From sequence record AY692264.1: a stretch of DNA of 64,000 nucleotides; one strand, written 5' to 3'. The notes beneath the pieces were generated by a model. The model searched no databases, had not been told where the DNA came from, and worked only from the letters and a program-made list of their open reading frames with translations. Positions 19,931 through 44,289 of this stretch are shown here, piece after piece; within the stretch, counting starts at the first letter, position 1, and every line of letters begins with the position of its first letter. Both the position numbers and the translations under genes were made by a program. The stretch comes from Escherichia phage T5.

Positions 19931-20344
19931 TTAAACTAGTTCGACATGACCGCCATCATAGGTACCACGTTTTATTTCATCGTGATAGTCTCCCGAAGCA
20001 TTCCAATCAGCACCAAAACGAAGTTTAATGCCTAGTTCTTTACCAGCTTGTTCAAAAGCCTTTTTAACTGCCCAAAATGCTTCCAAGTCATTCCAATCAA
20101 TTTTGCCATTAATATACGGAGCAAAATCAATAGCATCCCCAGTAATATGTTTGCTTTTACTAGGATCTTTTAGAAATGAAGTGCCATTAGCAATGTTCTG
20201 GGCACTTTGTGCTACTGTACGAATACCTTGCACGATTGTGAAATCATACGGAGATAATTCTAAAGCCCTACGAGCTACTTTTTGTAGTTCGGGCTTAACG
20301 GTGGCTAATTGTTTTTCGCTATTTTTACCAAATTTAAAACTCAT
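19931..20344 (-). CDS. lys: endolysin, zinc L-alanyl-D-glutamate peptidase type
   Basis: 137 aa, same size as T5 endolysin; H..D...H metal-binding pattern (HITGDAIDF ... GGHVEL). Confidence 0.7.
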   Translation of the reverse strand: MSFKFGKNSEKQLATVKPELQKVARRALELSPYDFTIVQGIRTVAQSAQNIANGTSFLKDPSKSKHITGDAIDFAPYINGKIDWNDLEAFWAVKKAFEQAGKELGIKLRFGADWNASGDYHDEIKRGTYDGGHVELV

Positions 20345-21051
20345 ATTGACCTACCTAAAGATCTCTGTTGTGGGGAACAGAGCTTTGTTAAGTATTCCTT
20401 AAATTGTTCTGAATCGGCAATATCTACTGGTTTATCTCTCCAAGCAATACCAATATACCCAGCATAGATATTGTTTAGATTGAAATACGGACACGTGTAA
20501 ATATAATTAAATATTACGTTTTTAAACGAAGGGATATCTTTCCCCATATATTTATTAACCTTTACAGTTAAATCCGAAGCATAGTTAAAGCCTTCTAGGT
20601 GACGTCTGTATAATTCAGACGTTTTATTTACTGCTTTATCGGCCAAGTCAGCCCTATCTAATTGCGCATTGCTTTCCCATGCAATAATGTTAGAGTAATC
20701 ATTAATGGCATCGGGTTTATACTTGACGACAAAAACAGCATCCGCACCCGTTTGAGAAAAGAGTACCATGCTCTTTTCTCTAGCTACATTAGGAAAGTTA
20801 TCTATCCTTTGAGTTTGAACATCCTGTAGAACCGCAGACGTGGAGAAAGTCTTTAAGAATGACATCACCTCACTAGTATTACTAACAAATAAGAAAATAA
20901 TGACAGCAACTAAGATAGTTAGCAGACGTTTAAGAAGCGATGCTGGGTCTTTCGCTTCTTGGAGCAGTACTGTTAATAATTGTAAGAACTTTTCCAATTT
21001 GTAACCTCCTCTAACCAGTACCATTATACTAATTTTGGAGGAAAATTTCAA
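20341..21051 (-). CDS. putative holin / membrane protein upstream of endolysin
   Basis: 236 aa, N-terminal TM segment, start overlaps lys. Confidence 0.4.
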   Translation of the reverse strand: MKFSSKISIMVLVRGGYKLEKFLQLLTVLLQEAKDPASLLKRLLTILVAVIIFLFVSNTSEVMSFLKTFSTSAVLQDVQTQRIDNFPNVAREKSMVLFSQTGADAVFVVKYKPDAINDYSNIIAWESNAQLDRADLADKAVNKTSELYRRHLEGFNYASDLTVKVNKYMGKDIPSFKNVIFNYIYTCPYFNLNNIYAGYIGIAWRDKPVDIADSEQFKEYLTKLCSPQQRSLGRSI

Positions 21052-21765: not shown

Positions 21766-22518
21766 TTATCCAACTAGTGGTTCTAGCTCTAAGTCACAGA
21801 AGTTATACATTTCTAGTTTAAGGTTATTGATACCATCGAATTTATTAACTAATTCGTGAGTGATATATTTTGCAGGAATACCACTTTCAGATGGATGATC
21901 TGATTTAATAGTGAACTTCTGCTCAGCGGGCACTACATTTACTAGTAAAGAATCCATATCTAAATGGTTCGTCTCTCTGAGTAACTCTCCTTCATTGGGG
22001 AATCTCACATCTGTTATTACGGCGACATCTGGGTCGTCTTTAGCGATGGATTGCTCCAGAATTATGAGCCAAATGCGTTCATGTACCAGCTGCCTTCCTA
22101 GCTCCGTTCCTACGAGCTGTAACATTTTTCTCGGAGAAATAAATAAACTATAAAGTCCGTCTTCTTTATTCTCTGAGATAAGTTGTTGAGGATTAAGATA
22201 TTTTTCCTCAAAAATCGGCCAAACGTACGAGAAGTCTTCAAACTTATCGATACCGTATTTAAACCATACGTCTCTAGCTCGCTCCAATTGAGATTGTGTG
22301 ACCGTAAACCATTGGTCAATCTCTTTCCCCCTGCGCTCTCCTAGAAACTCTGGAGTTACGCCGAGGATTACGGATGCAAGTTCATAAACGGGCTTAGCAA
22401 AACTGTAACGACGGGATAAACACGTTGGATACGTGTCATTACACCAATCGATAATTAATTTTGCAACGGTATCTTTTCCCGAACCAGCTTCACCATGTAA
22501 ACCGACTAATACTGACAT
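21766..22518 (-). CDS. dnk: deoxynucleoside monophosphate kinase
   Basis: 250 aa, Walker A GEAGSGKDT at N-terminus. Confidence 0.6.
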   Translation of the reverse strand: MSVLVGLHGEAGSGKDTVAKLIIDWCNDTYPTCLSRRYSFAKPVYELASVILGVTPEFLGERRGKEIDQWFTVTQSQLERARDVWFKYGIDKFEDFSYVWPIFEEKYLNPQQLISENKEDGLYSLFISPRKMLQLVGTELGRQLVHERIWLIILEQSIAKDDPDVAVITDVRFPNEGELLRETNHLDMDSLLVNVVPAEQKFTIKSDHPSESGIPAKYITHELVNKFDGINNLKLEMYNFCDLELEPLVG

Positions 22519-22871
22519 TAATCTTTCCTATTGTTAATTGGTGGATAATATACTAAACAACGTTTTTCTTGCAAATCTTGGCGGTAGAAGCAAACCATAC
22601 TTGTCAGTCGTGAGATATAAGAATATTCTGCCTCACGGCATTTTGCCAACATATTCCAATCTTTATATGGTACAACAACTACTACGCCATCTTCCCCATT
22701 TGTAGCTAATTTCTTTTCAAACTTAAAGTCAAAGCTACAAGGTTGAAGCCCTTTAGGCCAATCTACGTGAGCTGTTGGTAGCTCATGTGTAGGTTCTGGC
22801 TTTATTTCTTGTGCACAGCCTGTGATTGTGATTGCGGCTGCGAGCAGTATTCCAAGTTTCCAGTTAAACAT
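22518..22871 (-). CDS. lipoprotein, candidate o-spanin
   Basis: 117 aa; signal peptide with lipobox ITGC; overlaps 3' end of upstream TM/coiled-coil ORF. Confidence 0.4.
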   Translation of the reverse strand: MFNWKLGILLAAAITITGCAQEIKPEPTHELPTAHVDWPKGLQPCSFDFKFEKKLATNGEDGVVVVVPYKDWNMLAKCREAEYSYISRLTSMVCFYRQDLQEKRCLVYYPPINNRKD

Positions 22872-23245
22872 GCTAATCTTTCCTCGAACTCCTTACTCTG
22901 CTTTTTAGCAATTAATGTAACCAATCCAGGCTTTGCAGCTATAATATCTTGACGACTAAGTGCCTTATCAAGCTGATTAATTTTCTTGTCTAGATCTGCT
23001 TGCGAAACATTATTCATTGTGAAATACTGATTCATTCGAGTCTCACGAAGTTCACTCTCAGCCCTCACATTATTAAGGGAGGTTTCTAGAGAAGAGATCT
23101 TTTTAGTAGCTACTGCAAGATCGCCTGCTAGAGTCTCAACCTTATTAACTAAGTGATAAGCACCGAATCCTATGCCTATCGCTAGACCTGCTCCCAGGAT
23201 ATACATCTTGTTATTCCAAACTAAGTCTACAAACCATTTCCGCAT
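22802..23245 (-). CDS. TM plus coiled-coil protein, candidate i-spanin
   Basis: 147 aa; N-terminal TM helix then long coiled-coil. Confidence 0.4.
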   Translation of the reverse strand: MRKWFVDLVWNNKMYILGAGLAIGIGFGAYHLVNKVETLAGDLAVATKKISSLETSLNNVRAESELRETRMNQYFTMNNVSQADLDKKINQLDKALSRQDIIAAKPGLVTLIAKKQSKEFEERLACLTGNLEYCSQPQSQSQAVHKK

Positions 23246-28027: not shown

Positions 28028-28040
28028 TAGATCTCCTGGT

Positions 28041-28654: not shown

Positions 28655-28669
28655 ATGAATTTTTAAGTT

Positions 28670-29163: not shown

Positions 29164-29179
29164 AGTGTTTCCTTAAAGT

Positions 29180-29255: not shown

Positions 29256-29262
29256 GATTATT

Positions 29263-29340: not shown

Positions 29341-29346
29341 ATTGTT

Positions 29347-29422
29347 TGGCAGAAGGTAGTGGGTTCGAACCACGATCAGTGGTTTCAGAGATCCCAGCCT
29401 TAACCGACTTGGCTAACCTTCT
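29347..29422 (-). tRNA. tRNA, anticodon unresolved
   Basis: perfect acceptor pairing AGAAGGT/ACCTTCT, T-loop TTCGAAC, CCA encoded; anticodon arm could not be folded cleanly by hand; 5' end overlaps HNH ORF 3' end. Confidence 0.45.
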
Positions 29423-29981
29423 TCTTAATACTTTTTGGATCTTTACCTGTTAAGGATTTATAACGTTTACGTAGTCCGTTATCAGATAATCCTAACTCTT
29501 TTGATGCTTTAACCCATGAATAGTTTATTACCCAATATTCTATTTGCTCTGCTGTAATATCAGGGCTACTCTTAGGTTTACAATCAAAACAAGTTTTAGA
29601 TGAAGAATTTATTTGTTTATTACAGTAAGGGCATTTATTACCACCTATTGTATGTCCTCTTTCAACTGTAGTTTTTATTCTATGATCTTGCTTGGTCATG
29701 ACTACTAGATTATCTAAGGAAAAATTCAATTTATTCCTATCTTTGTGATCCACTTCTAGCTCAGATTCTAGTGAAGGTAAATCTTTAAATACTCTAGCTA
29801 GTAATCTATGTAATACGATAGAGACATTCTTGCCCTGTTCATAGAATGTTACAAACGGATATCCTGCACTACCTAAATGATGTGTGAGTAATTTATTACT
29901 CTTGGTAGAGTAAACTTCTCCATATGGAGAGATTAAGTATTCGGGATATTCCGGAATTACTTTGAAATTTTCTAATTTCAT
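29400..29981 (-). CDS. HNH homing endonuclease with C-terminal HTH-like domain
   Basis: 193 aa; HNH motif EVDHKDRNKLNFSLDNLVVMTKQDH; paralog of 31025-31609. Confidence 0.65.
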   Translation of the reverse strand: MKLENFKVIPEYPEYLISPYGEVYSTKSNKLLTHHLGSAGYPFVTFYEQGKNVSIVLHRLLARVFKDLPSLESELEVDHKDRNKLNFSLDNLVVMTKQDHRIKTTVERGHTIGGNKCPYCNKQINSSSKTCFDCKPKSSPDITAEQIEYWVINYSWVKASKELGLSDNGLRKRYKSLTGKDPKSIKKKVSQVG

Positions 29982-29982
29982 C

Positions 29983-30183
29983 TTATTCTACAGGAACCGT
30001 GGCGATTGGCTCAGGTTCTTCAAGGCGCTTACCTTCATGATCTACTCGAATGACTCCGCATCCTTCGCAAACCACAACTGCACCATAACCTTCTTTGACT
30101 TCGGCTTCTGTAATCAGACCAGATAAGTCACCAGTATCTCTGCCCCACATATCAATGGAGCATTGTTTGCAGAAATCAGCCAT
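29983..30183 (-). CDS. small zinc-ribbon protein
   Basis: 66 aa with two CxxC pairs (CKQC ... CEGC). Confidence 0.4.
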   Translation of the reverse strand: MADFCKQCSIDMWGRDTGDLSGLITEAEVKEGYGAVVVCEGCGVIRVDHEGKRLEEPEPIATVPVE

Positions 30184-30208
30184 ATTTTATTTCCTATTTA
30201 AGTTAATT

Positions 30209-30285
30209 TGGGGTGGCTAGTGGAATTCGAATCCACATAGGCCTGATTCACAATCAGGATCATTAACCAATTATGATATAGCCAC
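30209..30285 (-). tRNA. tRNA-His (GUG)
   Basis: acceptor GTGGCTA/TAGCCAC, D-stem TCAT/ATGA, anticodon stem CCTGA/TCAGG with loop TTGTGAA, T-arm GTGGA-TTCGAAT-TCCAC, CCA encoded. Confidence 0.75.
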
Positions 30286-30514
30286 AATTGAAAACTCGCA
30301 GGGTTAGCGAAACCATCCTCAATTAGCATGTTCTAGAATACTAATCAAGTTATCTCCTATTGCACGCAGCTCAAGACGAGTACGAATTTTCAATTGTGGC
30401 GGCTCTCAGAAACTCTTCTATTCTAGCCCCAGAAGCTTACCCCCGAACGCATGTCGGGAAAGTCTTTCCAAGCGCATCAAATAGCACCGTTACACTTTGA
30501 GCCATTGATATATC

Positions 30515-30599
30515 AAGGAACAGAAGGAGTTGAACCTTCACGAGATAGACCATTTATCTCAACCGCTTTTAAGGTATATTTCTAGGAGTGGATGTTCCT
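30515..30599 (-). ncRNA. tRNA-like element, long-arm type, fold unresolved
   Basis: T-arm GAAGG-TTCAACT-CCTTC and acceptor pairing AGGAACA/TGTTCCT seen; D and anticodon arms not resolved by hand. Confidence 0.3.
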
Positions 30600-30654
30600 A
30601 GTAAACCTATTCGGCAGTCCCGTCTACCAATTCCGGCATATTCCAAGAATTTTT

Positions 30655-30828
30655 TATAAACCAGCAGAAGCCTCATTTAAAGCATCAACAATAGCTTCAC
30701 GCTGGGTCATTCCATACCCAGTGGAGTCTAGGTGAGGCAAATAGGCTGCCCATCCATTATCTGTTTCATGAAGGCATGCTTTAAATTTTTTACCGTCCTT
30801 CATTGTTACAGTAACTGTTTTGCTCATA
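30655..30828 (-). CDS. small protein (57 aa, below track cutoff)
   Basis: read manually; AAGGA RBS then ATG (MSKTVTVTMKDGKKFKACLHETDNGWAAYLPH...). Confidence 0.35.
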
Positions 30829-30847
30829 AGGATTCCTTATAGTTAAT

Positions 30848-30937
30848 TGGAGGAAGGTAATGGAGTCGAACCATCACCGTATCACTACAGCGGGCTAGTT
30901 TTCAAGACTAGTTGCGTACCACTACGCCCTACCTTCC
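30848..30937 (-). tRNA. tRNA-Ser (UGA), type II
   Basis: 90 nt; acceptor GGAAGGT/ACCTTCC, anticodon stem CTAGT/ACTAG with loop CTTGAAA, long variable arm, T-loop TTCGACT, CCA encoded. Confidence 0.65.
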
Positions 30938-30944
30938 ATTTGTT

Positions 30945-31038
30945 TGGCGGAAAAGATGGGAGTTGAACCCATAAGGCAATATTGCTATTACTCAACCGAT
31001 TTCCAATCGGGTTTAGTCGCCAGTCTATTTGCTTTTCC
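30945..31038 (-). tRNA. tRNA-Ser (GGA)-like, type II
   Basis: acceptor GGAAAAG/CTTTTCC, anticodon loop TTGGAAA, variable-arm hairpin GCAAT/ATTGC, T-arm ATGGG-TTCAACT-CCCAT; unusually long (94 nt); 5' end overlaps HNH ORF. Confidence 0.45.
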
Positions 31039-31609
31039 GTTGTTCTGTTAATACTTTTGGGCTTAATCCAGTTAGTTTAGTATACCTCCTGCGCAAAGTG
31101 GACTCTGATACTTCTAACTCTTTAGCTGCCTTAACCCACCCCATTAATAAAACCTTTTCAGTTATGTCGTCTAAAGACAATTCTGGTTTTATCAACCTTC
31201 CTGTAGGTTTTGGCTTACAATTTGTACATGTTACAGATCTCTGAAGCATTAGACTCCCACATAGGGGGCAAGGTACTCTACTGTCAGACCACCCATTATC
31301 TTTATTAGTTTTCCTCTGATGTTCTATTTTTGATAGGACTTGAAGATTATCTTTAGATAGATTCAGTCTATCTCTATCCTTATGATCTACCTCTAATTCA
31401 GGGTCAAATAGATTATATAAGTCCCCAAATACATGAGAAATAATTCGGTGTATAAGTACAGAGGTTTGTTTACCATTTATCTGTAATTTTACAGCAGGGT
31501 ATCCATCAACTATATATCTTGATAAAACTTTATTAGTAAATGTAGAGAACACATCCCCCGCCTCATTTACTAAATACCCTGGTGCATCTTTTATTGGTAC
31601 AAACTGCAT
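31025..31609 (-). CDS. HNH homing endonuclease with C-terminal HTH-like domain
   Basis: 194 aa; ELEVDHKDRDRLNLSKDNLQVLSKIEH; paralog of 29400-29981. Confidence 0.65.
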   Translation of the reverse strand: MQFVPIKDAPGYLVNEAGDVFSTFTNKVLSRYIVDGYPAVKLQINGKQTSVLIHRIISHVFGDLYNLFDPELEVDHKDRDRLNLSKDNLQVLSKIEHQRKTNKDNGWSDSRVPCPLCGSLMLQRSVTCTNCKPKPTGRLIKPELSLDDITEKVLLMGWVKAAKELEVSESTLRRRYTKLTGLSPKVLTEQRKSK

Positions 31610-31626
31610 ACATAAATCCTATGAGT

Positions 31627-31711
31627 TGGTGGGGCTAGGGAGACTCGAACTCCCACGCATTTAAGCTACGGAATCTAAGGCCGTATTGTCTACCAGTTCC
31701 AGCATAGCCCC
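31627..31711 (-). tRNA. tRNA-Leu (UAG), type II
   Basis: 85 nt; acceptor GGGGCTA/TAGCCCC, anticodon loop CTTAGAT, T-arm GGGAG-TTCGAGT-CTCCC, CCA encoded. Confidence 0.65.
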
Positions 31712-31716
31712 GAATT

Positions 31717-31791
31717 TGGTGGACAAAGAGGGACTCGAACCCTCCCTACCAGATTGCAAGTCTGGTGTGCTCCCGCTGACACTATTCGCCC
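31717..31791 (-). tRNA. tRNA-Ala (UGC)
   Basis: acceptor GGGCGAA/TTTGTCC with G-U pairs, D-stem GTGT/ACAC, anticodon stem CCAGA/TCTGG with loop CTTGCAA, T-arm GAGGG-TTCGAGT-CCCTC. Confidence 0.7.
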
Positions 31792-31990
31792 AAATTATTT
31801 AGTTTACTAAGGCTATTAGCTCGGCGTAACTACAGCACCTTCGCTTCAAGCGGAAGGAACCGCGTCATCTCGCAAACCCAATACACTATTCAGTTGCCGC
31901 TGAATCTAGTGGACTAATCTAGAACTTCTCCCAAATCGTAGGGATCGTGCTTTTTGGCAGCCAGTCCTAGGTCGAGCTAATACCTTAGTG
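31792..31990 (-). ncRNA. unassigned structured segment (candidate stable RNA or tRNA-operon leader)
   Basis: about 200 nt between promoter 32030 and tRNA-Ala with no ORF over 12 aa; hairpins CCTTCGC-TTCAA-GCGGAAGG and CTAG-N9-CTAG. Confidence 0.3.
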
Positions 31991-32029
31991 AACTATGATG
32001 GGGATTTCTCCTCATCAATTTATATAAAT

Positions 32030-32058
32030 ATTATAACAAGAAATTAAGCATTAAGCAA
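32030..32058 (-). promoter_or_regulatory. T5-type early promoter (TTGCTT-17-TATAAT) heading the tRNA operon
   Basis: ATTATA 32030-32035, AAGCAA 32053-32058. Confidence 0.7.
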
Positions 32059-32083
32059 CTGCGTTTTTGAAATTTCTTGGACT

Positions 32084-32157
32084 TGGTACTCGGTGATAGA
32101 ATCGAACTATCACAACCGCCGTGTAAAGGCGGGGTTCTCCCATTATACTAACCGAGC
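32084..32157 (-). tRNA. tRNA-Val (UAC)
   Basis: acceptor GCTCGGT/ACCGAGT, anticodon stem CCGCC/GGCGG with loop TTTACAC, T-arm GATAG-TTCGATT-CTATC, CCA encoded. Confidence 0.7.
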
Positions 32158-32164
32158 AAAAATT

Positions 32165-32242
32165 TGGTGGGTTGCACAGGACTCGAACCTGTAACCTATG
32201 GTTTAAAAGACCAGTGCTCTAAACCAGTTGAGCTAGCAACCC
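32165..32242 (-). tRNA. tRNA-Lys (UUU)
   Basis: acceptor GGGTTGC/GCAACCC, D-stem GCTC/GAGC, anticodon loop CTTTTAA, T-arm ACAGG-TTCGAGT-CCTGT, CCA encoded. Confidence 0.7.
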
Positions 32243-32410
32243 TTAGTAACCATTATATACTTCTTTAATAGTATGGACTTTCAAATAAAGGTGATTAGTA
32301 CTAAACTCCGCCATTACTTCTTTTTCATTTTTTCCATAATGTGCAAGTAAGGATTTTGATGTATTCTTACCTAAACGTTTGTCACTTACTACTAATCGAA
32401 ATACTTTCAT
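32243..32410 (-). CDS. small protein (55 aa, below track cutoff)
   Basis: read manually; GAGGA RBS then ATG (MKVFRLVVSDKRLGKNTSKSLLAHYGKNEKEVMAEF...). Confidence 0.35.
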   Translation of the reverse strand: MKVFRLVVSDKRLGKNTSKSLLAHYGKNEKEVMAEFSTNHLYLKVHTIKEVYNGY

Positions 32411-32430
32411 TTCGAAATCCTCTATTAAAA

Positions 32431-32508
32431 TGGAAGCGGGTGCAGGAATCGAACCTACCTCTTTCTAGCTTATGAGACTAGCGATCTCTACCAGAGATCT
32501 AACCCGCA
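32431..32508 (-). tRNA. tRNA-Met (CAU)
   Basis: D-stem GATC/GATC, anticodon stem CTAGT/GCTAG with loop CTCATAA, T-loop TTCGATT, CCA encoded. Confidence 0.65.
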
Positions 32509-32514
32509 ATTGTT

Positions 32515-32591
32515 TGGTCTCCAATGAAGGACTCGAACCTTCAACCCCACCGCCCCAAACGGTGTACTCTAGCCAATTGAGCTAATCGGAG
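32515..32591 (-). tRNA. tRNA-Pro (UGG)
   Basis: acceptor CTCCGAT/ATTGGAG, D-stem GCTC/GAGT, anticodon stem CACCG/CGGTG with loop TTTGGGG, T-arm GAAGG-TTCGAGT-CCTTC. Confidence 0.7.
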
Positions 32592-32595
32592 AAAA

Positions 32596-32754
32596 TTATT
32601 TCTTCAGCCACAACATGCTTAATCCTAGCATTGTAAAGCCTGTACTTAATCCTATTACCTTTTCTATCATAGAAAAGTTATCTATGTTAAATCCTACTAT
32701 TACTATAGGGATAACCCAAGTACACATGAATACTGATGCAATTTTATACTTCAC
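32596..32754 (-). CDS. small hydrophobic peptide (about 43-52 aa)
   Basis: read manually; GAGAAGGAAAG RBS, GTG or downstream ATG start; TM-like sequence (WVIPIVIVGF...). Confidence 0.3.
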   Translation of the reverse strand: MKYKIASVFMCTWVIPIVIVGFNIDNFSMIEKVIGLSTGFTMLGLSMLWLKK

Positions 32755-32787
32755 TTAGCTTTCCTTCTCTTCACTTTATAAGATATA

Positions 32788-32815
32788 TTATACAGAGAAT
32801 TAAGCATAATAGCAA
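32788..32815 (-). promoter_or_regulatory. T5-type early promoter (TTGCTA-16-TATAAT)
   Basis: ATTATA 32788-32793, TAGCAA 32810-32815. Confidence 0.6.
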
Positions 32816-32959
32816 CTACATTTTTCATAAATTTACTTATTGTGTAGGCCACCTGGAGGCTACCAACCCCACGGCTGACAAAGAAGTTTGCGAGACTTCT
32901 CTTAAAAGCCAGAATAGACCCGCCGATCTATCGGAACCTACATAATAAGTAAACTTTAT

Positions 32960-33110
32960 AGTGTCATCCTAGACAGGATTCGAACCTGCTATCACTTGTG
33001 CGGACTTACGAGAACCATTCTTTCACTCGAATCGAACGAGCTTCTGCCCTCGCCAAGTTGGTTTCCCCATCAACCACGCTAGAATGTTAGATTGTTTTCA
33101 GTGCAAGAGT
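32960..33110 (-). ncRNA. two T-arm-like motifs without resolvable cloverleaf (degenerate tRNA or structured RNA)
   Basis: GCAGG-TTCGAAT-CCTGT and GCTCG-TTCGATT-CGAGT equivalents on minus strand; no matching acceptor stems found by hand. Confidence 0.25.
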
Positions 33111-33207
33111 CCGAGTCTTGGACACGACCGCTTCGCAAGTACATAGGCAGCTTATCATGAGTCAGCACTTCCGAATTGCTAGCTCCGTGTTCTGCACTGA
33201 AATTTTA

Positions 33208-33555
33208 TTAGTTTAACCGTAAAGTATTATCTACTTCACCATTAATTGTTCGGCACTCCTCTGGGATTGCCGGAGTGGCCTTGTATTCCCACCACTCAGC
33301 ACCATCATATTCCCCACGTTCTAGCCAAGTTCCGTCGGCAAACCATACATTACCATAAAGTAATTGTCCACCGTATCCAGAATCATATTCAAAGTCTAGG
33401 TTATCAAGAAAATCCTCAATATCTTCTTCTGTATAACCTAAAGGTAATACCCAAACTTTTTTATCCCCATAATACCCGAATTCTATTTTAATACACTTAA
33501 CTTCAGAATTAGTATTTTTTAAGGCAAGTAACAGCTCTTCTTTGGCATTACGCAT
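33208..33555 (-). CDS. hypothetical protein (start adjusted; track ORF start runs into tRNA-Asp)
   Basis: internal Met MRNAKEELL at 33555. Confidence 0.45.
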   Translation of the reverse strand: MRNAKEELLLALKNTNSEVKCIKIEFGYYGDKKVWVLPLGYTEEDIEDFLDNLDFEYDSGYGGQLLYGNVWFADGTWLERGEYDGAEWWEYKATPAIPEECRTINGEVDNTLRLN

Positions 33556-33580
33556 AGTATATTCCCATACTGAATTAATT

Positions 33581-33657
33581 TGGCGCGACCGATGGGATTT
33601 GAACCCACATTCTCTCCCGTGACAGGGGAGTACCATTACCAAGCCAGCCCCGGTCGC
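33581..33657 (-). tRNA. tRNA-Asp (GUC)
   Basis: acceptor GCGACCG/CGGTCGC, anticodon stem CTCCC/GGGAG with loop CTGTCAC, T-arm GTGGG-TTCAAAT-CCCAT, CCA encoded. Confidence 0.7.
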
Positions 33658-33666
33658 ATAATTTAT

Positions 33667-33846
33667 TTACTCAGCTTTGAGTTGTGATTTCAACCAGTTA
33701 GTAAACCCCAGCTCAGTTACGCAATCTTTATCAATACGTTGCAGGTCTCCTAGAACCGTACTTAGATGCTTAACTGATACAGCGTCACCACTTTTGCGAG
33801 CAGCTTCAATCAACTCTCGCAGTACATAAAGCATATTCATGCCCAT
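33667..33846 (-). CDS. small protein (59 aa)
   Basis: read manually; start overlaps upstream stop (TAATG). Confidence 0.35.
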   Translation of the reverse strand: MGMNMLYVLRELIEAARKSGDAVSVKHLSTVLGDLQRIDKDCVTELGFTNWLKSQLKAE

Positions 33847-34016
33847 TATTTCATCCCCAATGCTTGGTTAAAAGATTGTTCTGTCATAACTGCTGAAACT
33901 TTGGCGAAATCAAACTTTTTAGGGTTCGTAGTGATCTCAGCAACGTTGGAAGTTTTAACAGTTTTCGTAGTACGAATACCGCGAGTGTTAACACCAATGA
34001 CGATCAAGTTTTTCAT
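33846..34016 (-). CDS. small protein (56 aa)
   Basis: read manually; GAGGAAG RBS, downstream of promoter 34048. Confidence 0.35.
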   Translation of the reverse strand: MKNLIVIGVNTRGIRTTKTVKTSNVAEITTNPKKFDFAKVSAVMTEQSFNQALGMK

Positions 34017-34047
34017 ATTTCGCTTCCTCTCATTAATTTATGAAAGT

Positions 34048-34076
34048 ATTATACAGAAGTTTAAGTATTTAAGCAA
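34048..34076 (-). promoter_or_regulatory. T5-type early promoter (TTGCTT-17-TATAAT)
   Basis: ATTATA 34048-34053, AAGCAA 34071-34076. Confidence 0.7.
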
Positions 34077-34084
34077 ATAAATTT

Positions 34085-34552
34085 TTAAGTTTTAGTGACA
34101 GCAGGCTTATAAAATGTATGTCCCTTAATCTTAGTTGTTTTCTTAAACTTCTTTGTCCAGTATGGTTTATCTTTACCACTATGGAAGTATAAAGCTCCAT
34201 GTGTAGGATCTTGTGGTAAATCAACGTAGTATATCACTCTAGCTAAATTCTTGGCGGTTTGCCAAGCCTCATCGGTTTTATCGACTTTTGGTCTCTTAGA
34301 TACCCAAGAGAACTGGTTAGACTGATATACTACTTTACAGTAGGAATCTGGAAATTTGCCGGAGTTTACACGGTTTTTAGTAACCTGTGCAACCGCCATC
34401 ATTCCCTTTATGCCCTCACCACGACTCTCGAAATAGATATTTTTAGCAATGCAATCTATTTCTTTTGCATCGTGCGATGCTTGACTACTAAAGCTGAAGG
34501 TAAGGGCAGCTACTAAAAGCAAAGCTGCCTTCATTCTTTTTACTCCTGCCAA
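34085..34552 (-). CDS. secreted SleB-like cell-wall hydrolase
   Basis: 155 aa; N-terminal signal peptide; NIYFESRGEG ... QVTKNRV ... YQSNQFSW resembles SleB/Hydrolase_2 signature. Confidence 0.55.
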   Translation of the reverse strand: MAGVKRMKAALLLVAALTFSFSSQASHDAKEIDCIAKNIYFESRGEGIKGMMAVAQVTKNRVNSGKFPDSYCKVVYQSNQFSWVSKRPKVDKTDEAWQTAKNLARVIYYVDLPQDPTHGALYFHSGKDKPYWTKKFKKTTKIKGHTFYKPAVTKT

Positions 34553-34857
34553 TCGTATTCAATACGATTGGGGTTTTCTTTGTATCCCAAGTCAAGCAAA
34601 TCATTACGCATAGTTTGCTTAGCTACGGGATTCGAGGTTACTAGTACCACTTTCTTTGGTCTCTGCCCAAATTCTAAAAGTAAACGAAGAATTTGATAAC
34701 CTTCCATACCATCTACAGCCAAATCGTTATCGAAATAAACAAAATGGCCAGTGGTATCAGTTTTATTCAGAAACTCGATAGCGGCTTCTGGGGTTCGAAT
34801 GATAATGTCCATTCCGTGAAGATTACGCACATCATCAATCAAAATATGAAAAGTCAT
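34540..34857 (-). CDS. hypothetical protein (possible receiver-like fold)
   Basis: 105 aa ORF; weak resemblance only. Confidence 0.35.
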   Translation of the reverse strand: MTFHILIDDVRNLHGMDIIIRTPEAAIEFLNKTDTTGHFVYFDNDLAVDGMEGYQILRLLLEFGQRPKKVVLVTSNPVAKQTMRNDLLDLGYKENPNRIEYDWQE

Positions 34858-34887
34858 AATAGCCTCGTTTCATCAATTTAAAAATAT

Positions 34888-34916
34888 ATTATACAGAAAA
34901 CTTAATAAATTAGCAA
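34888..34916 (-). promoter_or_regulatory. T5-type early promoter (TTGCTA-17-TATAAT)
   Basis: ATTATA 34888-34893, TAGCAA 34911-34916. Confidence 0.7.
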
Positions 34917-35299
34917 ATACATTTTTAAATTGTGAAACTAGTAAACCGATAAACAGCCTAGAGGCGCCACAGGCCATATCTTACGAGCCATGTACCTTTG
35001 ATCTAGGGTTTGAATCATCAACGAATACTTTGCATCTTTTAGCTTTAGAAGTTTAGAAGTTTGAGTTCTTTAAACTTTTCAGCTTTCATACTTAAATGTT
35101 GATCTTTGAAGTTGTGTCGGTAATATCAACGACTTTTTGTTTTTACGTGTCAGATTAAATGTCTGATGTAATAAACATAATCTCCAATAGATTATACTTT
35201 ATAGTATGGTCAGCGGTCTTATTTAACCTCGTATTTCAACCGCTGCTGCGAGGTAAGATGCTTGGGCTTTCGTCTACCGATTTACTAGCTTTTAAATTA

Positions 35300-35938
35300 T
35301 TACTCTACTTCAATGAAGGTAGAGGCATTAGACTCGGACAGAACAAAGTCAACATTTGTTGCAAAGTCCTGGTATTCCTCGTCATGCTGTTTAATCAGCT
35401 TCTCCAGTCCCAGCGGATCAATCAAGAATGGAGTATTCTTGAGTTCCAACAGGTTGAGCTGCATTTTAACTTCATCTTCGGAAGTTTTCTTATCGCGGGT
35501 AGCCATGCTATCCTGCAAACGCTCATATTTAGCATCAAACTGTGCTTTCTGCGTATTAAACTTAACCGTAGCGGCATGGAACTGCTTACGCATATTAGCC
35601 AGCAACTGAGCTTTAAGCTCCATAGAACGCTTAGCTTCAATTGCTTCTGCAACAGTCATTTTACGAGAACCGATCTCAACGATCGTTTCTGCGTTGCTCT
35701 TAATCAGAGCAGCTTTGATACGATCACGCTGGGACATCATATCCAGCAGAGACTGGAAATCAGTCTTAATACGAGTAGACAGGGCATCTACTTCGATTGC
35801 GGCGCCAACTACAACCTGGTTTTTATCCTTACCTTCACCAACAGCGATCAGAAGCTGTTGTTCAGTAGCTTTACGGATTTTAGCTTCCAGAGATTTGATG
35901 GTTGCCAGAGCACGAGTTTTAGAAATACGAGTGGTCAT
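35300..35938 (-). CDS. coiled-coil protein
   Basis: 212 aa; chosen over antisense plus-strand ORFs on operon direction and residue composition. Confidence 0.5.
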   Translation of the reverse strand: MTTRISKTRALATIKSLEAKIRKATEQQLLIAVGEGKDKNQVVVGAAIEVDALSTRIKTDFQSLLDMMSQRDRIKAALIKSNAETIVEIGSRKMTVAEAIEAKRSMELKAQLLANMRKQFHAATVKFNTQKAQFDAKYERLQDSMATRDKKTSEDEVKMQLNLLELKNTPFLIDPLGLEKLIKQHDEEYQDFATNVDFVLSESNASTFIEVE

Positions 35939-35990
35939 TGTTTCTTCCTTATATGAAGTTTAAGATTTGAATTTGTTTAAAGTTGGTCTA

Positions 35991-36173
35991 TTACAGACCA
36001 ATTGCCAGTAGGGTACGCAGAACAGTATCTTTACTGTTATCAATTTTAGGATTAGCACGATTTAGCAGATCAAAGATTTTCTGGACACCTGATTGACGTT
36101 CAGCCATACGACGGATACCCAGATTACGAGTAGCTTTCTTACCATTTTTACGAACATTTTTAGATACTGGCAT
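35991..36173 (-). CDS. small basic protein
   Basis: 60 aa, Lys/Arg-rich; downstream of promoter 36214. Confidence 0.4.
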   Translation of the reverse strand: MPVSKNVRKNGKKATRNLGIRRMAERQSGVQKIFDLLNRANPKIDNSKDTVLRTLLAIGL

Positions 36174-36213
36174 ATTTGTTTTCCTTTTGTTGTTTTCTCA
36201 AATTTATGAATAT

Positions 36214-36242
36214 ATTATACAGAATTTTGAAGCTGGAAGCAA
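36214..36242 (-). promoter_or_regulatory. T5-type early promoter (TTGCTT-17-TATAAT)
   Basis: ATTATA 36214-36219, AAGCAA 36237-36242. Confidence 0.7.
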
Positions 36243-36243
36243 A

Positions 36244-36945
36244 TCAAATTTTGATTTTTTCGACCATAGCTGCAACACAATAGCTCTCAACTAAGGCATC
36301 GAATGCTGGGTCATGTTTAACTGGGTAGATTCCATAACGAATGGTGTCCATCTTCTCCATCTTAGCTTTTGCCCAGCTAATCCCCTCTGCTTCTAGGTCT
36401 TTGTAGCTATAACCAGCCTGCATCCAGAGATTGCGGAGAGATCGAACATTGCCCAAGTTCCAGAATTTCCACGGAACTATTTCTTCATTGGTTCCAGCAT
36501 GAAACGTATTTGCAGAATAGATAGTCATATCAAATTCTGGGCCGTTGCCATAATACAAAGCATTCTCACCTAGAGCCAACTCCATAATATTTTGGGCCAT
36601 AGAGTAAGCAGCATAGTTAGAGCCGAGTTTATTAGTACAACGATGTTTACCATTTTGGAATGCAATCAGCTTTGGATTACGATCGTTCATAGCTTCCATA
36701 ATATGGAGAGCTGATGGACTATTTTTAGCTTGATCCATCCAGAATGCTAGAGTAGATGCCGTAACTTTAGCTCCAGAATTAAGCTGATCTTGTACATCCA
36801 AAGTAACAAACACTAGATCGGGGTCTTTATCAATTCCATGCATAGCCACAAAAGCGAAAGAAGGCATTGCGATATGAGTAGTACCGCAATCTCCTGGAGT
36901 TCCTAGAGATTCAATATCTAGCATACCAAATGGTTTTACTTTCAT
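36244..36945 (-). CDS. hypothetical protein, possible DEDD-type exonuclease
   Basis: 233 aa; N-terminal FGMLDIESLG resembles exonuclease motif I; weak. Confidence 0.35.
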   Translation of the reverse strand: MKVKPFGMLDIESLGTPGDCGTTHIAMPSFAFVAMHGIDKDPDLVFVTLDVQDQLNSGAKVTASTLAFWMDQAKNSPSALHIMEAMNDRNPKLIAFQNGKHRCTNKLGSNYAAYSMAQNIMELALGENALYYGNGPEFDMTIYSANTFHAGTNEEIVPWKFWNLGNVRSLRNLWMQAGYSYKDLEAEGISWAKAKMEKMDTIRYGIYPVKHDPAFDALVESYCVAAMVEKIKI

Positions 36946-36973
36946 AACTTATCTTTTATTGCGTAGAAAACTA

Positions 36974-37210
36974 TTAAAGAGCTGTCTCTTTAATAGACTC
37001 CCACTTCTTGAGGTCTTTAGAACCAGGAAGCATATCCTCACTGACATCCCAGTTCTCTTCCATAGAGAAGTCAGGCCATTCATTCCAGCTACCTTCCAGC
37101 TCTTCATAACAGGTATTCATTACCTCATGACTAGAAAGTCGTGTATAATCTCTAGCGGATTTATGGGTGCTAGCACGGTTAAAATCATTCTTTGCTACAA
37201 AATTACGCAT
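36974..37210 (-). CDS. hypothetical acidic protein
   Basis: 78 aa ORF. Confidence 0.4.
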   Translation of the reverse strand: MRNFVAKNDFNRASTHKSARDYTRLSSHEVMNTCYEELEGSWNEWPDFSMEENWDVSEDMLPGSKDLKKWESIKETAL

Positions 37211-37252
37211 AGTTTCTCCAAAATATGAGGGGCTTTCGCCCCTATTTATCTA

Positions 37253-37768
37253 TTACTTCGCTTTACGCTTGCGAGCTGGTTTAGCAGATTTACGAGCAGA
37301 ATCGCCCGTGAATTTAATCCCTACACCGTAGCACAGAGCACGAACGTTATCTTTGCTATACTCTACACCGAAGATATTTGGCTTAACAGAACCAAACTGT
37401 CCACGAGCATCACGCAGTACATCTGCCGTTGGTTTACGCTTCTGGTTAACTGCTTTCTCATAATCTTTCATGGCCATGCCATTACGAGAGAACAATTCAG
37501 CTCCAGCATTGAAACTCAGTGTTACTGGAACAGATTTGTGACCATAACCCTGTACATAGGTCACAAGGCGGGCTACAGAACGAGTAGCATTCTTAGCCTT
37601 CGGCTTTTGACGAATCGGAGCCGGACGATTCAGTGCCTGTGCAGCTTGAGCATCAGTAGGATGCTTGCGCAGGTGGCGTTCCAGACGAGCTTTGCGGTTA
37701 GCCTCAGTCTGCGGGAAAGTTTTAACTGTAGTAGCTGCTTGAGTTTTTGCGTTTTTCTGCTTAGCCAT
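37253..37768 (-). CDS. basic, probably nucleic-acid-binding protein
   Basis: 171 aa, strongly Lys/Arg-rich at both termini. Confidence 0.5.
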   Translation of the reverse strand: MAKQKNAKTQAATTVKTFPQTEANRKARLERHLRKHPTDAQAAQALNRPAPIRQKPKAKNATRSVARLVTYVQGYGHKSVPVTLSFNAGAELFSRNGMAMKDYEKAVNQKRKPTADVLRDARGQFGSVKPNIFGVEYSKDNVRALCYGVGIKFTGDSARKSAKPARKRKAK

Positions 37769-37806
37769 TATTTGTTTTCCTTTTTGTTTATCAATTTATG
37801 AAGTAT

Positions 37807-37835
37807 ATTATACGAGAATTTGAAGCGTTTAGCAA
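37807..37835 (-). promoter_or_regulatory. T5-type early promoter (TTGCTA-17-TATAAT)
   Basis: ATTATA 37807-37812, TAGCAA 37830-37835. Confidence 0.7.
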
Positions 37836-37851
37836 ATGAATTTTTTAAAAA

Positions 37852-38130
37852 TTATCTGCCGACCATCTTAGCTTGTTCTTCATCAGAAACGTATTGATAT
37901 GCACCCTTGTTATACGCCGGAGCAGTGCACATCTTCTTACGCTCAATTTCTTCTTGAGCTTTACGTTCACGTTCTGCCAATTCCTCATCCAGATAAACTA
38001 AACGTTGTTCTGGAGGAGGTGGAAGACGTGTTTCTGGCTCACCAATATTAGCCTTTCTTATTTGACGAGGTGATTGTGCACGTTTTCTCAACGGTTTAAA
38101 TCCTAATGAATTTGAGTTATAAATTCGCAT
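37852..38130 (-). CDS. hypothetical protein
   Basis: 92 aa ORF. Confidence 0.4.
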   Translation of the reverse strand: MRIYNSNSLGFKPLRKRAQSPRQIRKANIGEPETRLPPPPEQRLVYLDEELAERERKAQEEIERKKMCTAPAYNKGAYQYVSDEEQAKMVGR

Positions 38131-38157
38131 AAAGCCCTCCTCACTTTCAATACGAAT

Positions 38158-38186
38158 ATTATACTAAATTAGAGGGCTTTAAGCAA
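38158..38186 (-). promoter_or_regulatory. T5-type early promoter (TTGCTT-17-TATAAT)
   Basis: ATTATA 38158-38163, AAGCAA 38181-38186. Confidence 0.7.
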
Positions 38187-38206
38187 GAAGATTTTTAATT
38201 TATTTA

Positions 38207-38695
38207 TCACATCTCGGCCATTTCAGCTTCAGTAATAACTGTGTTACACAATGCATCTACAGCTTCATTACCACTAATACCAGAATGTCCTTTAACCTTA
38301 ATAAAGGTAGGATTAGTATTGTGGAAGTTAATGTATTGCTGGGTTAATTTAAATGCTTCTTGCCAAAGTTCTAGATTAAGAGGAACTTCACCATCTGCTT
38401 TCTTCCAGCCTTTCCTTTGCCAAGAGAACATCCAGCTTTCCATACCATTTTTGCAATAAGCAGAATCAGTATAGATAACAATTGGTCTATTATCTTTTTT
38501 AACTGACCAACGTAGAGCTTCTACAATAGCTGTGAGTTCCATCTCATTATTTGTAGTTTTAGGACTATAACCAGATTTAGAGCCTAAACGATCGTCGTTA
38601 TCATCATAGACAATAAAACCCCAAGCACCCGGGCCAGGGTTGGACTTACAAGCGCCATCTGTATAAACATGGAAAACTGACATTATTTGCTCCAA
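38207..38695 (-). CDS. rnh: ribonuclease H
   Basis: 162 aa; RNase H1 signature (YTDGAC ... ELTAIVEAL ... YTDSAY ... GHSGISGNEAVDAL). Confidence 0.85.
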   Translation of the reverse strand: MEQIMSVFHVYTDGACKSNPGPGAWGFIVYDDNDDRLGSKSGYSPKTTNNEMELTAIVEALRWSVKKDNRPIVIYTDSAYCKNGMESWMFSWQRKGWKKADGEVPLNLELWQEAFKLTQQYINFHNTNPTFIKVKGHSGISGNEAVDALCNTVITEAEMAEM

Positions 38696-38744
38696 TTAAT
38701 AGTTACCCAATAGCCTTCACGCTAATTATGATCAAGTAAAATAT

Positions 38745-38774
38745 ATTATATTTGAAATTATACCTAATAAGCAA
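38745..38774 (-). promoter_or_regulatory. T5-type early promoter (TTGCTT-18-TATAAT)
   Basis: ATTATA 38745-38750, AAGCAA 38769-38774; GCCC-loop-GGGC hairpin at 38791-38810 between thyA stop and promoter. Confidence 0.6.
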
Positions 38775-38816
38775 GTACAATTTCAAATATAATAGCCCCC
38801 GAAAGGGCTATTTGAG

Positions 38817-41957: not shown

Positions 41958-44289
41958 TTATAACTGGCAACCACCAGAAGCACAACCCGCTGCTTCTTCA
42001 CCAGCTCCTCCACCATTCGCAGTGTTGAAGTTTGCGTAGTACCAAGTCTTCCAACCATATTTAACAGCAGTCATGAAATCACGAACTACTACCGGGCCAG
42101 GAATGATTTCATTCTCAAACTTGGTGTAGTCATAGTACATATTAGTACTGATAGACTGGCTGAAGAATTTCTGCATAGTTGCTACCCATTTGATCCATTC
42201 AATACGATCTACATCATAAGCCAGTTTATAGCTCATTAACGTTTCCCAGTCGGTTGCACCTGGAGCAATTGCAATTACTTTATTCACTGCACTACCCTTG
42301 ATAGATACAATCTTACGGGGTGGTTCAATAGAGTTAGTAACCCCTAACAGAACGGAAGAACTTTCTCCCGGCATCTGCGCAGTCAGAACAGAATTACGCA
42401 TACCGTACTTCAGAATGTCTGCACGCAGAGATTCCCAATCCATTTCTAGACCTACGGATACCAACTCATCAACAGTTTTCTTATACGTGTCGATTACCAG
42501 GATTCCTTTGGATGGTTTAGTACGATTAAACCATTCACATGCACCTTGCTCTTTGGCTAGACGTACAGAGGCTTTATGCAGGAAGTAGGACAATTTTTCA
42601 GCTTCACGATGAATCCAGTTACGAGCCTCAATACCTTCATAAGCCAGACCTTCTGCTGCCATTGCACCTGCTGCGTTCATAAGGCCAATACCAACGTTAC
42701 GACGTTTCTTAGCTGTATATTCCATGGTCGGGAACGGATAGTCCTGAATTTCAATAATTGTATCAACGAATTTCAGGAGGATGTAGCAAGTTTTTTCCCA
42801 CTCAGCCAGAGATTCCATGCGTCCAAGTACAACACCACCTAAGTTACACAGAGATACTTCACCAATATCCTCCGGCTTCATTTGATCAAGTTGTTCTTTT
42901 GTTTTATACAGTTCCGTGATATGATGGAACGGGCGTGTAGGTTGAGTAATTTCAACACAAAGGTTTGTCATACGGATCGGATCAAGGAAGTTACCGTGAC
43001 GATTAGATTCCCCGATGTGGTGAGCATACATACGTCCTGTTTCCATTCGGATACGTAGCCAAGTATCTAGGATTTCTTTTGCAGAGACTTTAGGAGCTGT
43101 TGGAACTGTTTTTCCTTCGTGGTCGATCTTTGTAAGAGATGCCACACGTTTCTCCGCTGCCACATAGATTTCTTCAAATTTAGCCTCGTCATCACTATAA
43201 AACGCTTCATGAACTTCTGGAGCATAGAAGTATGACATTAGCGTAATATCTTCATTTTTCAGATAACGTTTTAACAAAAGATTGTTGAAGCTCAGGGAAT
43301 AATCCATCTTATCGATTTTATTCTCATCTGTAGCACGTTGTTGCTTAACCTGCATCAATTGAATGATTTCAGGGTCAAAGTATGGATAAGATACTGTAGC
43401 AGAACCACCACGAGTTTGCTGAGTATTAGCCTTTACTGATCGGTCAATGTGTCGATAATATGGCAGTTTTCCGGAATGCGGGAATGCCCCATTTCGCACC
43501 GGATCAGCAATTGATCGGCTTTCAAGATGATACCCGATTCCCGCTCTGGCTGCGACCATTTTGAAAACGATGTGCTCGGCTGTGTCGATTGAATCCAATG
43601 TGTCAGTGGAATCCACGAGGCAGCAACTAGCAAATCCACGGTCACTAGAGCGCAAGCCAACCAATGGCGGCGTAGGAACGTTGATTTTGTGGAGCGACAT
43701 TGCATTGTAGAGATCGATTGCATCTAGAATTGTCCAGTTGGGTTGAGATAACATCGCCATTGCCATACCCATATAGGCAAATTGCGGAGTTTCGTAAATT
43801 TCGCCAGTTGCGATATTACGACGGGAATACTTATCAAAGAATTGTTTCAATCCTCCGCTAGTGAAAAGACGGTCACGATCATGGTCAATAACCTGATTCA
43901 AAGCCTCAAACTGCTCATCGGTAATCCATGCACTCATGTCTTCCCATGCACCTACACTAACCATATGATCGTGGAAGAAGCGTAGAGAAGGTGGTTCGAA
44001 GGAATCATAAAGACGTTTACGCATCTGCGCAAGACGTAATTCCTTTGCTGGCACGTCGTATGCTGGATTATCTTTAATAAGACTTTCAGCAGCCTTAATT
44101 AAAGCATCCATCAGAGTATCGGAATCTACAACCCCTTTAGGCAGAGTTTTTTGAGCAGCCATAGTAATGGCAGACCAACTTACATCAACTGTTTTACAAC
44201 CATACTCTGCCCAACCATTGAGTTTTTCAGGAGCAAAGTCTTCTACAGTACCGTCACGTTTAATTACTTTTTCAATGCGATGGCTCATT
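41958..44289 (-). CDS. nrdA: ribonucleotide reductase large subunit (class I)
   Basis: ATP-cone start VIKRDGTVEDF; start set to MSHRIEKV with AGGA RBS (track ORF extends 34 codons further upstream). Confidence 0.85.

Follow-up and report, generated by a model that had tools for sequence, protein, structure and literature searches.

The 64,000-bp stretch of Escherichia phage T5 DNA analysed here (AY692264.1, referred to as the window) contains gene T5.083, whose product is a predicted exported cell wall hydrolase and is the subject of this report. An earlier note, made from the window sequence alone, had flagged an open reading frame (ORF) at 34085-34552 as coding for a SleB-like hydrolase with a signal peptide, located among early genes and away from the lysis cassette. 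That ORF is present on the minus strand and corresponds to T5.083, but its 5' end does not hold: the TTG at 34552, a start only in the mechanical sense of an ORF list, is rejected, as it lies inside T5.084, and the ATG at 34534-34532, preceded by AGGAG, is the start in both T5 records. The corrected coding sequence is 34085..34534 on the minus strand (149 codons plus stop), with its start 18 nt downstream of the flagged end. The T5 records place the gene at 42290..42739, equivalent to window positions 34085..34534, and name the product 'conserved hypothetical protein' (GenBank) or 'endolysin' (RefSeq). The Shine-Dalgarno sequence AGGAG (34543..34547, minus strand) adjoins the T5.084 stop codon (34540-34542) and is 8 bases upstream of the ATG. 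Two overlapping ORFs, at 34259-34516 on the plus strand and 34069-34224 on the minus strand, are annotated in neither T5 record.

The pre-protein is a single-domain protein of the SleB/CwlJ type. A profile search against SleB/Hydrolase_2, set beforehand as a test of the proposed hydrolase identity, gives a clear family hit to Pfam Hydrolase_2 (PF07486; E 1.5e-26, score 93.3 bits, threshold 27) that extends over all 100 profile positions, and the protein also matches PHROG 938 'endolysin' (E 1.2e-30). A sequence search of the Protein Data Bank (PDB) found relatives only in Bacillus cereus and B. anthracis, namely their SleB catalytic domains (E 1e-8), and for phage Hydrolase_2 enzymes the PDB searches turned up no structure. 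The model that AlphaFold2 gave from an alignment with 31 diverse homologues is confident, with a mean predicted local distance difference test score (pLDDT) of 93.7 and a predicted template modelling score (pTM) of 0.84. Its only significant Foldseek matches in the PDB are 4FET and 4F55 (probability 1.0, root-mean-square deviation 2.4-3.0 Å, template modelling score normalised to the target 0.71-0.78, 29-31% identity), and dozens of its matches in the viral structure library BFVD are named SleB or cell wall hydrolase. Both the sequence match and the modelled fold thus bear out the description of the product as SleB-like.

The T5.083 motif Y-F-E-S-R-G-E aligns with Y-G-E-S-R-G-E in SleB, and Glu36 (codon GAG, 34427..34429, minus strand) is equivalent to the first glutamate of the SleB motif. 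SleB is a lytic transglycosylase for which the catalytic glutamate is essential (PMC12331253); Glu36 is the predicted catalytic residue of T5.083, which by homology would cleave the glycan bond that joins N-acetylmuramic acid (MurNAc) to N-acetylglucosamine (GlcNAc). The family is large, with 15,163 clusters at E <= 1e-3, from which the best 150 representatives of clusters at 50% identity were aligned. Glu36 is invariant among the 31 diverse homologues and in 149 of the 150 cluster representatives, the remaining row having a gap, and Arg55, Gln74, His139 and Phe141 are likewise invariant or nearly so in both alignments. Assignment of T5.083 as a SleB orthologue is rejected: it scores only 52.7 bits against the SleB equivalog model TIGR02869, far under the cut-off of 236.5 and matching profile positions 79-201, and it lacks the N-terminal PG_binding domain.

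That T5-like phages carry such a gene is already known, as RefSeq, many T5-like records and two papers annotate the product as a cell wall hydrolase or endolysin. The description of phage AKFV33 in 2012 lists a 'cell wall hydrolase SleB (ORF81)' together with lysozyme and holin in the early region (PMC3326045), and Guzel et al. (2024) report that Salmonella T5-like phages have an M15 endolysin encoded next to the holin and, at a distance from it, an 'endolysin' with a SleB domain, and ask which of them is used. More generally, Hydrolase_2 is recognised as a common family among the lysins of phages of Gram-negative hosts (PMC8223927).

The N-terminus and predicted export

Codons 1-19 of T5.083 (34478..34534, minus strand) encode a predicted Sec signal peptide, MKAALLLVAALTFSFSSQA, with a predicted signal peptidase I cut after Ala19 (SQA|SH). 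The mature domain comprises residues 20-149 (34085..34477 with the stop codon, minus strand), and the Pfam match spans residues 45-148 of the 155-residue translation of the full ORF. The N-terminus can be written as MK / AALLLVAALTFSF / SSQA|SH, with a basic residue (K2), a short, strongly hydrophobic core of 13 residues rich in Leu, Val and Phe, a polar stretch, and a small-x-small site. In diverged orthologues a cleavage-type site is kept exactly 8 residues before Cys28 (SHA|T, AYA|T, SYA|S, VQA|Q, AIA|S and AQA|K), and the signal region drifts faster than the remainder of the protein; between T5.083 and the orthologue P0019, residues 1-19 are 37% identical and the mature part 93%. A hydrophobic N-terminal segment is present in 142 of 149 nearest cluster representatives. 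Cys28 (34451..34453, minus strand) and Cys66 (34337..34339, minus strand) are both present in 148 of the 150 aligned rows, the exceptions being one row with both replaced (Ala/Arg) and one with a gap at position 28; Bacillus SleB carries Leu and Ser at these positions. Taken together, the fixed position of the site, the faster drift of the signal region, the hydrophobic N-termini and the cysteine pair are read here as probable signs that a cleavable Sec signal and a disulfide in the periplasm are under selection. The signal peptide proposed in the earlier note therefore stands, on rule-based analysis and on conservation of the cleavage site across diverged orthologues. The identity of T5.083 as a SleB-type wall hydrolase is well supported, and we consider it highly probable that the product is both such an enzyme and exported.

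The mature protein of 130 residues would be ~15 kDa, with a computed isoelectric point of ~9.7 and a Lys-rich C-terminal tail; small size, a strongly basic character and a tail of this type are features sought in enzymes that kill Gram-negative bacteria from the outside. A lipoprotein reading is rejected, as the sequence has no lipobox ([LVI][ASTVI][GAS]C) and the only N-terminal cysteine, Cys28, is preceded by E-I-D.

A different reading of the N-terminus is that it remains uncleaved, as a signal anchor or a signal-arrest-release (SAR) domain, and holds the enzyme, still inactive, at the inner membrane until the holin depolarises this membrane, in the manner of P1 Lyz and R21. In its favour, the N-terminus has an uncharged stretch of 19 residues that becomes rich in Ala, Ser and Thr towards the end, and AlphaFold draws the N-terminus as a helix continuous with helix 1. 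Distant homologues (PAK_P3 gp151 and a group of 159 residues) have anchor-like N-termini with no clear AxA site, and Phobius-type predictors cannot tell signal peptides from SAR domains (PMC8223927). Yet the core AALLLVAALTFSF is only 13 residues long, is rich in Leu, Val and Phe rather than Gly and Ala, and is followed by a polar c-region, and the small-x-small site, for which a SAR domain has no need, has stayed fixed while the surrounding sequence drifted. Features of this kind separate the two classes, and by the same published criteria (core composition and a conserved AxA-type site following it) a SAR endolysin is rejected (PMC7692668). As such, an anchored T5.083 appears highly improbable, and we favour a cleavable signal peptide.

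Expression context, lysis genes and the strain deletion

T5.083 is the second gene of a two-gene T5.084-T5.083 unit predicted from the promoter and sequence context. A sigma70-type early promoter, TTGCTA-17-TATAAT, is located ahead of both genes at 34888..34916 on the minus strand (10 of 12 matches in a consensus scan) and coincides with a promoter annotated in NC_005859 at 43067..43141. The upstream gene, T5.084 (34540..34857, minus strand), codes for a protein with a cREC_REC (cyclic-phosphate processing receiver) domain and no signal peptide (Pfam PF20274, E 3.4e-15; PHROG 1479, unknown function). At its 3' end, directly 5' of the T5.083 ribosome-binding site, is a perfect inverted repeat with a 10-bp stem, CCAATCGTAT-TGA-ATACGATTGG (34549..34571, minus strand); the RNA of 34505-34600 on the same strand folds with -26.1 kcal/mol (z = -2.77 relative to shuffled sequences), and the hairpin might have a coupling or limiting effect on T5.083 translation. 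No T-run accompanies it, so a role as terminator on the coding strand is rejected.

On the 3' side of T5.083 are T5.082 (DUF7616) and then T5.081, which is truncated in this deletion strain, and the wider neighbourhood holds the cREC_REC protein, the DUF7616 protein and an Rv2179c-like exoribonuclease. No inhibitor, partner or holin is found beside T5.083, and its neighbours have no signal peptide, membrane segment or holin-like segment. T5.084 was considered as a conserved partner and rejected, since distant T5-like contigs have a gene unrelated to it (BLASTP E 8.8) upstream of the homologue, and in Sugarlandvirus an exonuclease gene occupies this place. Two names in the vicinity deserve comment. 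T5.085 (35300-35938, minus strand) is called 'tail fiber protein' in RefSeq, a name that looks unreliable for a gene located among early genes and with no Pfam match. T5.087 (36244-36945, minus strand) is an 'exonuclease' in RefSeq and a 'metallopeptidase' in GenBank, but matches an Rv2179c-like 3'-5' exoribonuclease domain, so that its RefSeq name looks unreliable too.

The lysis cassette is located at 19931-23245 on the minus strand. It includes the characterised endolysin EndoT5 (T5.040; 19931..20344, minus strand), an M15 L-alanyl-D-glutamate peptidase with no signal peptide (PDB 2MXZ/8P3A, E 6.6e-91, full-length match to residues 1-137; PHROG 465). The holin is at 20341..21051 (minus strand; PHROG 860 'holin', E 2.5e-77), and an overlapping spanin pair is at 22518..23245 (minus strand; PHROG 812 and 739 'Rz-like spanin'). 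The RefSeq label 'endolysin' for T5.083 looks unreliable and can cause confusion, since it is another gene that encodes the characterised endolysin of T5. T5.083 shows no physical linkage to the holin/spanin cassette, from which it is separated by 13.7 kb in this window and 21.9 kb in wild-type T5, and the earlier note was right to place it apart. The location among early genes, also noted there, is correct too, although the T5 lysis genes, EndoT5, holin and spanins alike, are themselves in the early region (PMC3326045), and early position thus does not set T5.083 apart from them.

The shorter distance in the window results from an 8,208-bp deletion in this strain. Window positions 24000-33683 are 99.9% identical to T5 24000-33680, and positions 33674-40000 are 100% identical to T5 41879-48205. 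The two blocks meet at a 10-bp repeat, GCTTTGAGTT, at window 33674-33683, and we therefore conclude that the strain lacks 8,208 bp of the tRNA/RNAX region, the deleted span being T5 33671-41878, between two copies of GCTTTGAGTT. Genes from T5.068 (part) to T5.081 (part) are gone, including several tRNAs, RNAX and the T5.080 lipoprotein, and a T5.081 stump of 59 residues remains at 33667-33846 on the minus strand. The right edge of the deletion is only ~400 bp from the T5.083 stop codon. The strain resembles a heat-stable 'st' deletion mutant, and is tentatively identified as one.

Role during infection

We propose that T5.083 is an accessory muralytic enzyme, namely a lytic transglycosylase that is exported by Sec and acts in the periplasm with no need of the holin, a reading to which we assign a probability of roughly 55%. 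Host RNA polymerase would transcribe the T5.084-T5.083 unit from the sigma70-type early promoter, and T5.083 would be translated from its own AGGAG and ATG. The 19-residue signal peptide would direct the protein to the Sec translocon, signal peptidase I would cut after Ala19, and the basic domain of 130 residues would fold in the periplasm with a Cys28-Cys66 disulfide. There the SleB/CwlJ fold, with Glu36 as the single catalytic glutamate, is expected to cleave the MurNAc-GlcNAc bond as a lytic transglycosylase. EndoT5 would stay in the cytoplasm until the holin fires and would cut a different bond (L-Ala-D-Glu); T5.083 could act before and independently of it, because it would reach the sacculus with no help from the holin. 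By thinning or loosening the wall in the course of infection, T5.083 may help EndoT5 to dismantle it at lysis. Periplasmic action at a stage other than that of the endolysin, as the earlier note had suggested, is consistent with the evidence and with hypotheses put forward for PAK_P3 gp151 and the Kayvirus enzyme Tgl (see below).

Several points weigh against this reading. A literature search by the gene and protein identifiers of T5.083 found nothing on the gene itself, whether enzymatic, genetic or on localisation, and the signal peptide was judged by rules and conservation rather than with a trained predictor. Bacillus SleB needs muramic-delta-lactam, which is absent from E. coli, so the T5.083 clade may have another substrate preference. 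An active glycan cleaver exported early should risk premature lysis, and no adjacent inhibitor or partner is visible in T5.084 or T5.082. The homologues sit with DNA- and RNA-metabolism genes in T5-like, Pakpunavirus, Nankokuvirus and marine T4-like phages, and not with lysis genes, which fits a role outside lysis equally well. In a CRISPRi-ART screen of T5 (bioRxiv 10.1101/2023.09.18.558157, supplement), neither the 17 Fit genes nor the Semi-Fit genes listed include T5.083, which would fit a dispensable gene, but this is weak evidence, because many essential T5 genes were missed by the screen, as its authors state.

Another possibility is that T5.083 is latent: the intact, peptide-bearing glycan would be a poor substrate, and the enzyme would act only after EndoT5 has stripped the stem peptides at L-Ala-D-Glu, depolymerising a nearly naked glycan. 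This would explain how early export is tolerated, and, according to earlier work, the muramic-delta-lactam recognised by Bacillus SleB is a mark of peptide-stripped glycan. CB7 and phiTE, two unrelated phages of Pectobacterium, likewise combine a SleB-like protein bearing a signal peptide with an M15 peptidase that is EndoT5-like, and the genes for T5.083 and EndoT5 are both near-universal in T5-like phages. The idea is however purely inferential. Each without a partner, CB7_83 proves toxic in E. coli and T6EC3 makes E. coli cells round up and lyse, so enzymes of this type can attack the intact wall. Many phages, such as Phapecoctavirus, pair Hydrolase_2 with a lysozyme and not a peptidase, and outside the T5-like phages the genus counts of the Hydrolase_2 protein and EndoT5 differ. 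A latent second-step enzyme is thus improbable.

T5.083 is close to universal in T5-like phages. Copies of at least 60% identity are present in ~521 records of the phage collection and EndoT5 in 526, a comparison of record counts and not one made genome by genome. More distant relatives (43-48% identity) occur in T5-like metagenomic contigs of 85-95 kb, where they adjoin genes for Metallophos (phosphoesterase), dGTP_diPhyd_N, Thy1, RNase H and UvdE. Two marine T4-like contigs (L006, 6001-6603; L007, 5220-5822) have a Hydrolase_2 protein of 200 residues with a signal peptide and a linker of ~45 residues, located between RNase H and gp32-region genes and beside genes for Fe-S assembly (NifU/IscA-like) and S-AdoMet lyase. 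In Vequintavirus, represented by Escherichia phage MaxTheCat (L092, 2402-4881), the gene for a signal-peptide Hydrolase_2 protein, in which the second conserved cysteine is Arg, overlaps the start of rIIA by 4 nt, with rIIB following; this arrangement physically ties an exported wall hydrolase to 'membrane integrity protector' genes (rIIA/rIIB). The homologue of Pakpunavirus EM (L094, 2321-2881) is between genes for a ligase and dCMP deaminase on one side and (p)ppGpp hydrolase on the other, and PAK_P3 gp151 (L095, 11294-11857) is between ligase and DprA/helicase genes. These Pseudomonas phage homologues have a longer N-terminus, anchor-like and with embedded acidic residues, rather than a cleavable signal peptide. 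An apparent truncation of the Klebsiella (Sugarlandvirus) homologue in tblastn is rejected, as it reflects C-terminal divergence only, in a protein that has its full length and a signal peptide. Cellular relatives with 34-45% identity are present in chromosomes of Alpha- and Betaproteobacteria, and a search of 5,426 complete E. coli genomes for a host origin found no copy at the DNA level.

The genomic settings of these homologues bear on the principal alternative, that T5.083 is an early periplasmic enzyme of wall remodelling or turnover, effectively an auxiliary metabolic gene, which would cut host peptidoglycan in the eclipse phase so that wall material is released or recycled, or the envelope is conditioned, with a negligible share in lysis. 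Homologues are found among early or nucleotide-metabolism genes in several unrelated phage lineages, the phages concerned already carry a separate canonical endolysin, and the Zymomonas relative is a housekeeping enzyme affecting growth, shape and cross-linking. Exactly this role was proposed by Chevallereau et al. for PAK_P3 gp151 (PMC4933390). It is however doubtful what a phage would gain from this when its host is destroyed within an hour, a holin candidate overlaps the homologues in Certrevirus, for which there is a link to lysis, and position says little when the T5 lysis genes are themselves in the early region. On balance we consider this role unlikely, and prefer that of an accessory enzyme contributing to lysis. 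A broader proposal is that the exported enzymes of SleB type which many unrelated virulent phages encode within early or DNA-metabolism modules form a functional class of their own, being early periplasmic wall remodellers or latent glycan finishers and not endolysins. Its members would be found in the T5-like phages, Vequintavirinae (with the gene overlapping rIIA/rIIB), Pakpunavirus, Nankokuvirus and the marine T4-like phages, and we put it forward only tentatively, as rather doubtful.

T5.083 is probably dispensable for plaque formation in the laboratory. In Klebsiella phage vB_Kpn_3 (P0032, a 112-kb genome) the orthologue is frameshifted after residue 78, which removes the C-terminal third including His139 and Phe141; the cause is either natural loss of function or an error in sequencing. 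T5.084 scored 'Fit' in the CRISPRi-ART screen, as one of six Fit genes of unknown function (bioRxiv 10.1101/2023.09.18.558157). Polar or coupling effects of T5.084 knockdown on T5.083 were not considered in that screen.

The frameshifted allele, together with the failure of the screen to flag T5.083, could be taken to mean that the product is not a working wall hydrolase in T5, and is instead a decaying remnant, a wall-binding protein with another function such as superinfection exclusion, or a virion-borne enzyme. There is a precedent in T4 for a periplasmic superinfection-exclusion protein aimed at lysozyme. Neither T5.083 nor T5.084 or T5.082 matches any of the PADLOC defence-system models, and in T5.083 this speaks against an exclusion function; the catalytic motif and fold core are invariant, and T5-like records retain the gene about as often as that of the endolysin. 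A cleavable signal peptide would moreover direct the protein away from the cytoplasm, where virions are assembled; the analysis of AKFV33 virions found four major proteins only and is uninformative here. We regard a product with no enzymatic role, or one carried in the virion, as a very remote prospect.

T5 is a model phage whose lysis system is usually described as holin, EndoT5 and spanins. As essentially every T5-like genome keeps the gene for a second, predicted exported wall cleaver that would be independent of the holin, this picture is probably incomplete. Whether T5.083 is a lysis helper, an early wall remodeller or something else is a modest question, and directly testable with existing T5 genetics.

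Comparison with known systems

The closest structural relatives of T5.083 are the Bacillus SleB/CwlJ enzymes (4F55 and 4FET), with which it shares the Pfam family, the fold and the E-S-R-G-E motif with its catalytic glutamate. It differs from Bacillus SleB in having no PG_binding domain, in carrying the cysteine pair, and in being encoded by a phage whose host has neither spores nor muramic-delta-lactam. Among cellular proteins, the periplasmic SleB-family lytic transglycosylases of proteobacteria belong, like T5.083, to an exported subfamily that bears the cysteine pair, and both Zymomonas mobilis SleB and the type VI secretion system effector T6EC3 act on a Gram-negative wall. Acting from the periplasm, the SleB-fold effector T6EC3 makes E. 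coli cells round up and burst, for which it needs the glutamate equivalent to Glu36 (PMC11148199), and the Zymomonas enzyme is soluble and important for growth, shape and wall cross-linking. Unlike the role proposed for T5.083, theirs are those of an interbacterial toxin and a housekeeping enzyme respectively.

Certrevirus and Vequintavirinae provide the nearest phage counterparts (CB7 gp83, phiTE SleB and gp087 of Cronobacter phage CR3), which are likewise single-domain Hydrolase_2 proteins with a signal peptide in virulent phages of Enterobacterales; phiTE SleB is 48% identical to T5.083 over residues 32-150. CB7, like T5, also encodes an EndoT5-like peptidase. CB7_83, which has a signal peptide, proves toxic on expression in E. 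coli and is regarded as a lysis enzyme, and CR3_087 has been implicated in lysis (PMC7344957). The arrangements differ in that CB7 gp83 adjoins an overlapping holin candidate with two transmembrane domains, whereas T5.083 has no membrane-protein neighbour.

Signal-peptide endolysins, such as Lys44 of fOg44 and F352 Lys of the Campylobacter Fletchervirus F352, resemble T5.083 in having a cleavable tripartite signal peptide and Sec export, and are active only once the holin dissipates the membrane potential (PMC7692668). They belong to other catalytic families, however, and each is the sole endolysin of its phage, whereas T5 has a separate, characterised cytoplasmic endolysin.

PAK_P3 gp151 and its Pakpunavirus relatives share with T5.083 the Hydrolase_2 domain and a position among DNA-metabolism genes, apart from the endolysin. 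Chevallereau et al. proposed that gp151 degrades the wall during infection, which would explain a build-up of cell-wall precursors (PMC4933390). These proteins are longer than T5.083 (187 residues), have an anchor-like N-terminus with no clear cleavage site, and are only 35-36% identical in the core. The enzyme Tgl of the Staphylococcus phages of Kayvirus is a precedent for the role favoured here, being a secreted, early-transcribed extra lytic transglycosylase alongside the main endolysin (PMC7150955). Like T5.083 it is an additional muralytic enzyme with a Sec signal peptide and an early-type host promoter, and joint action with the main endolysin has been proposed for it. Tgl differs in that it belongs to the IsaA/SceD-type family, comes from a phage of a Gram-positive host, is encoded only a few genes from lysK, and has been tested experimentally.

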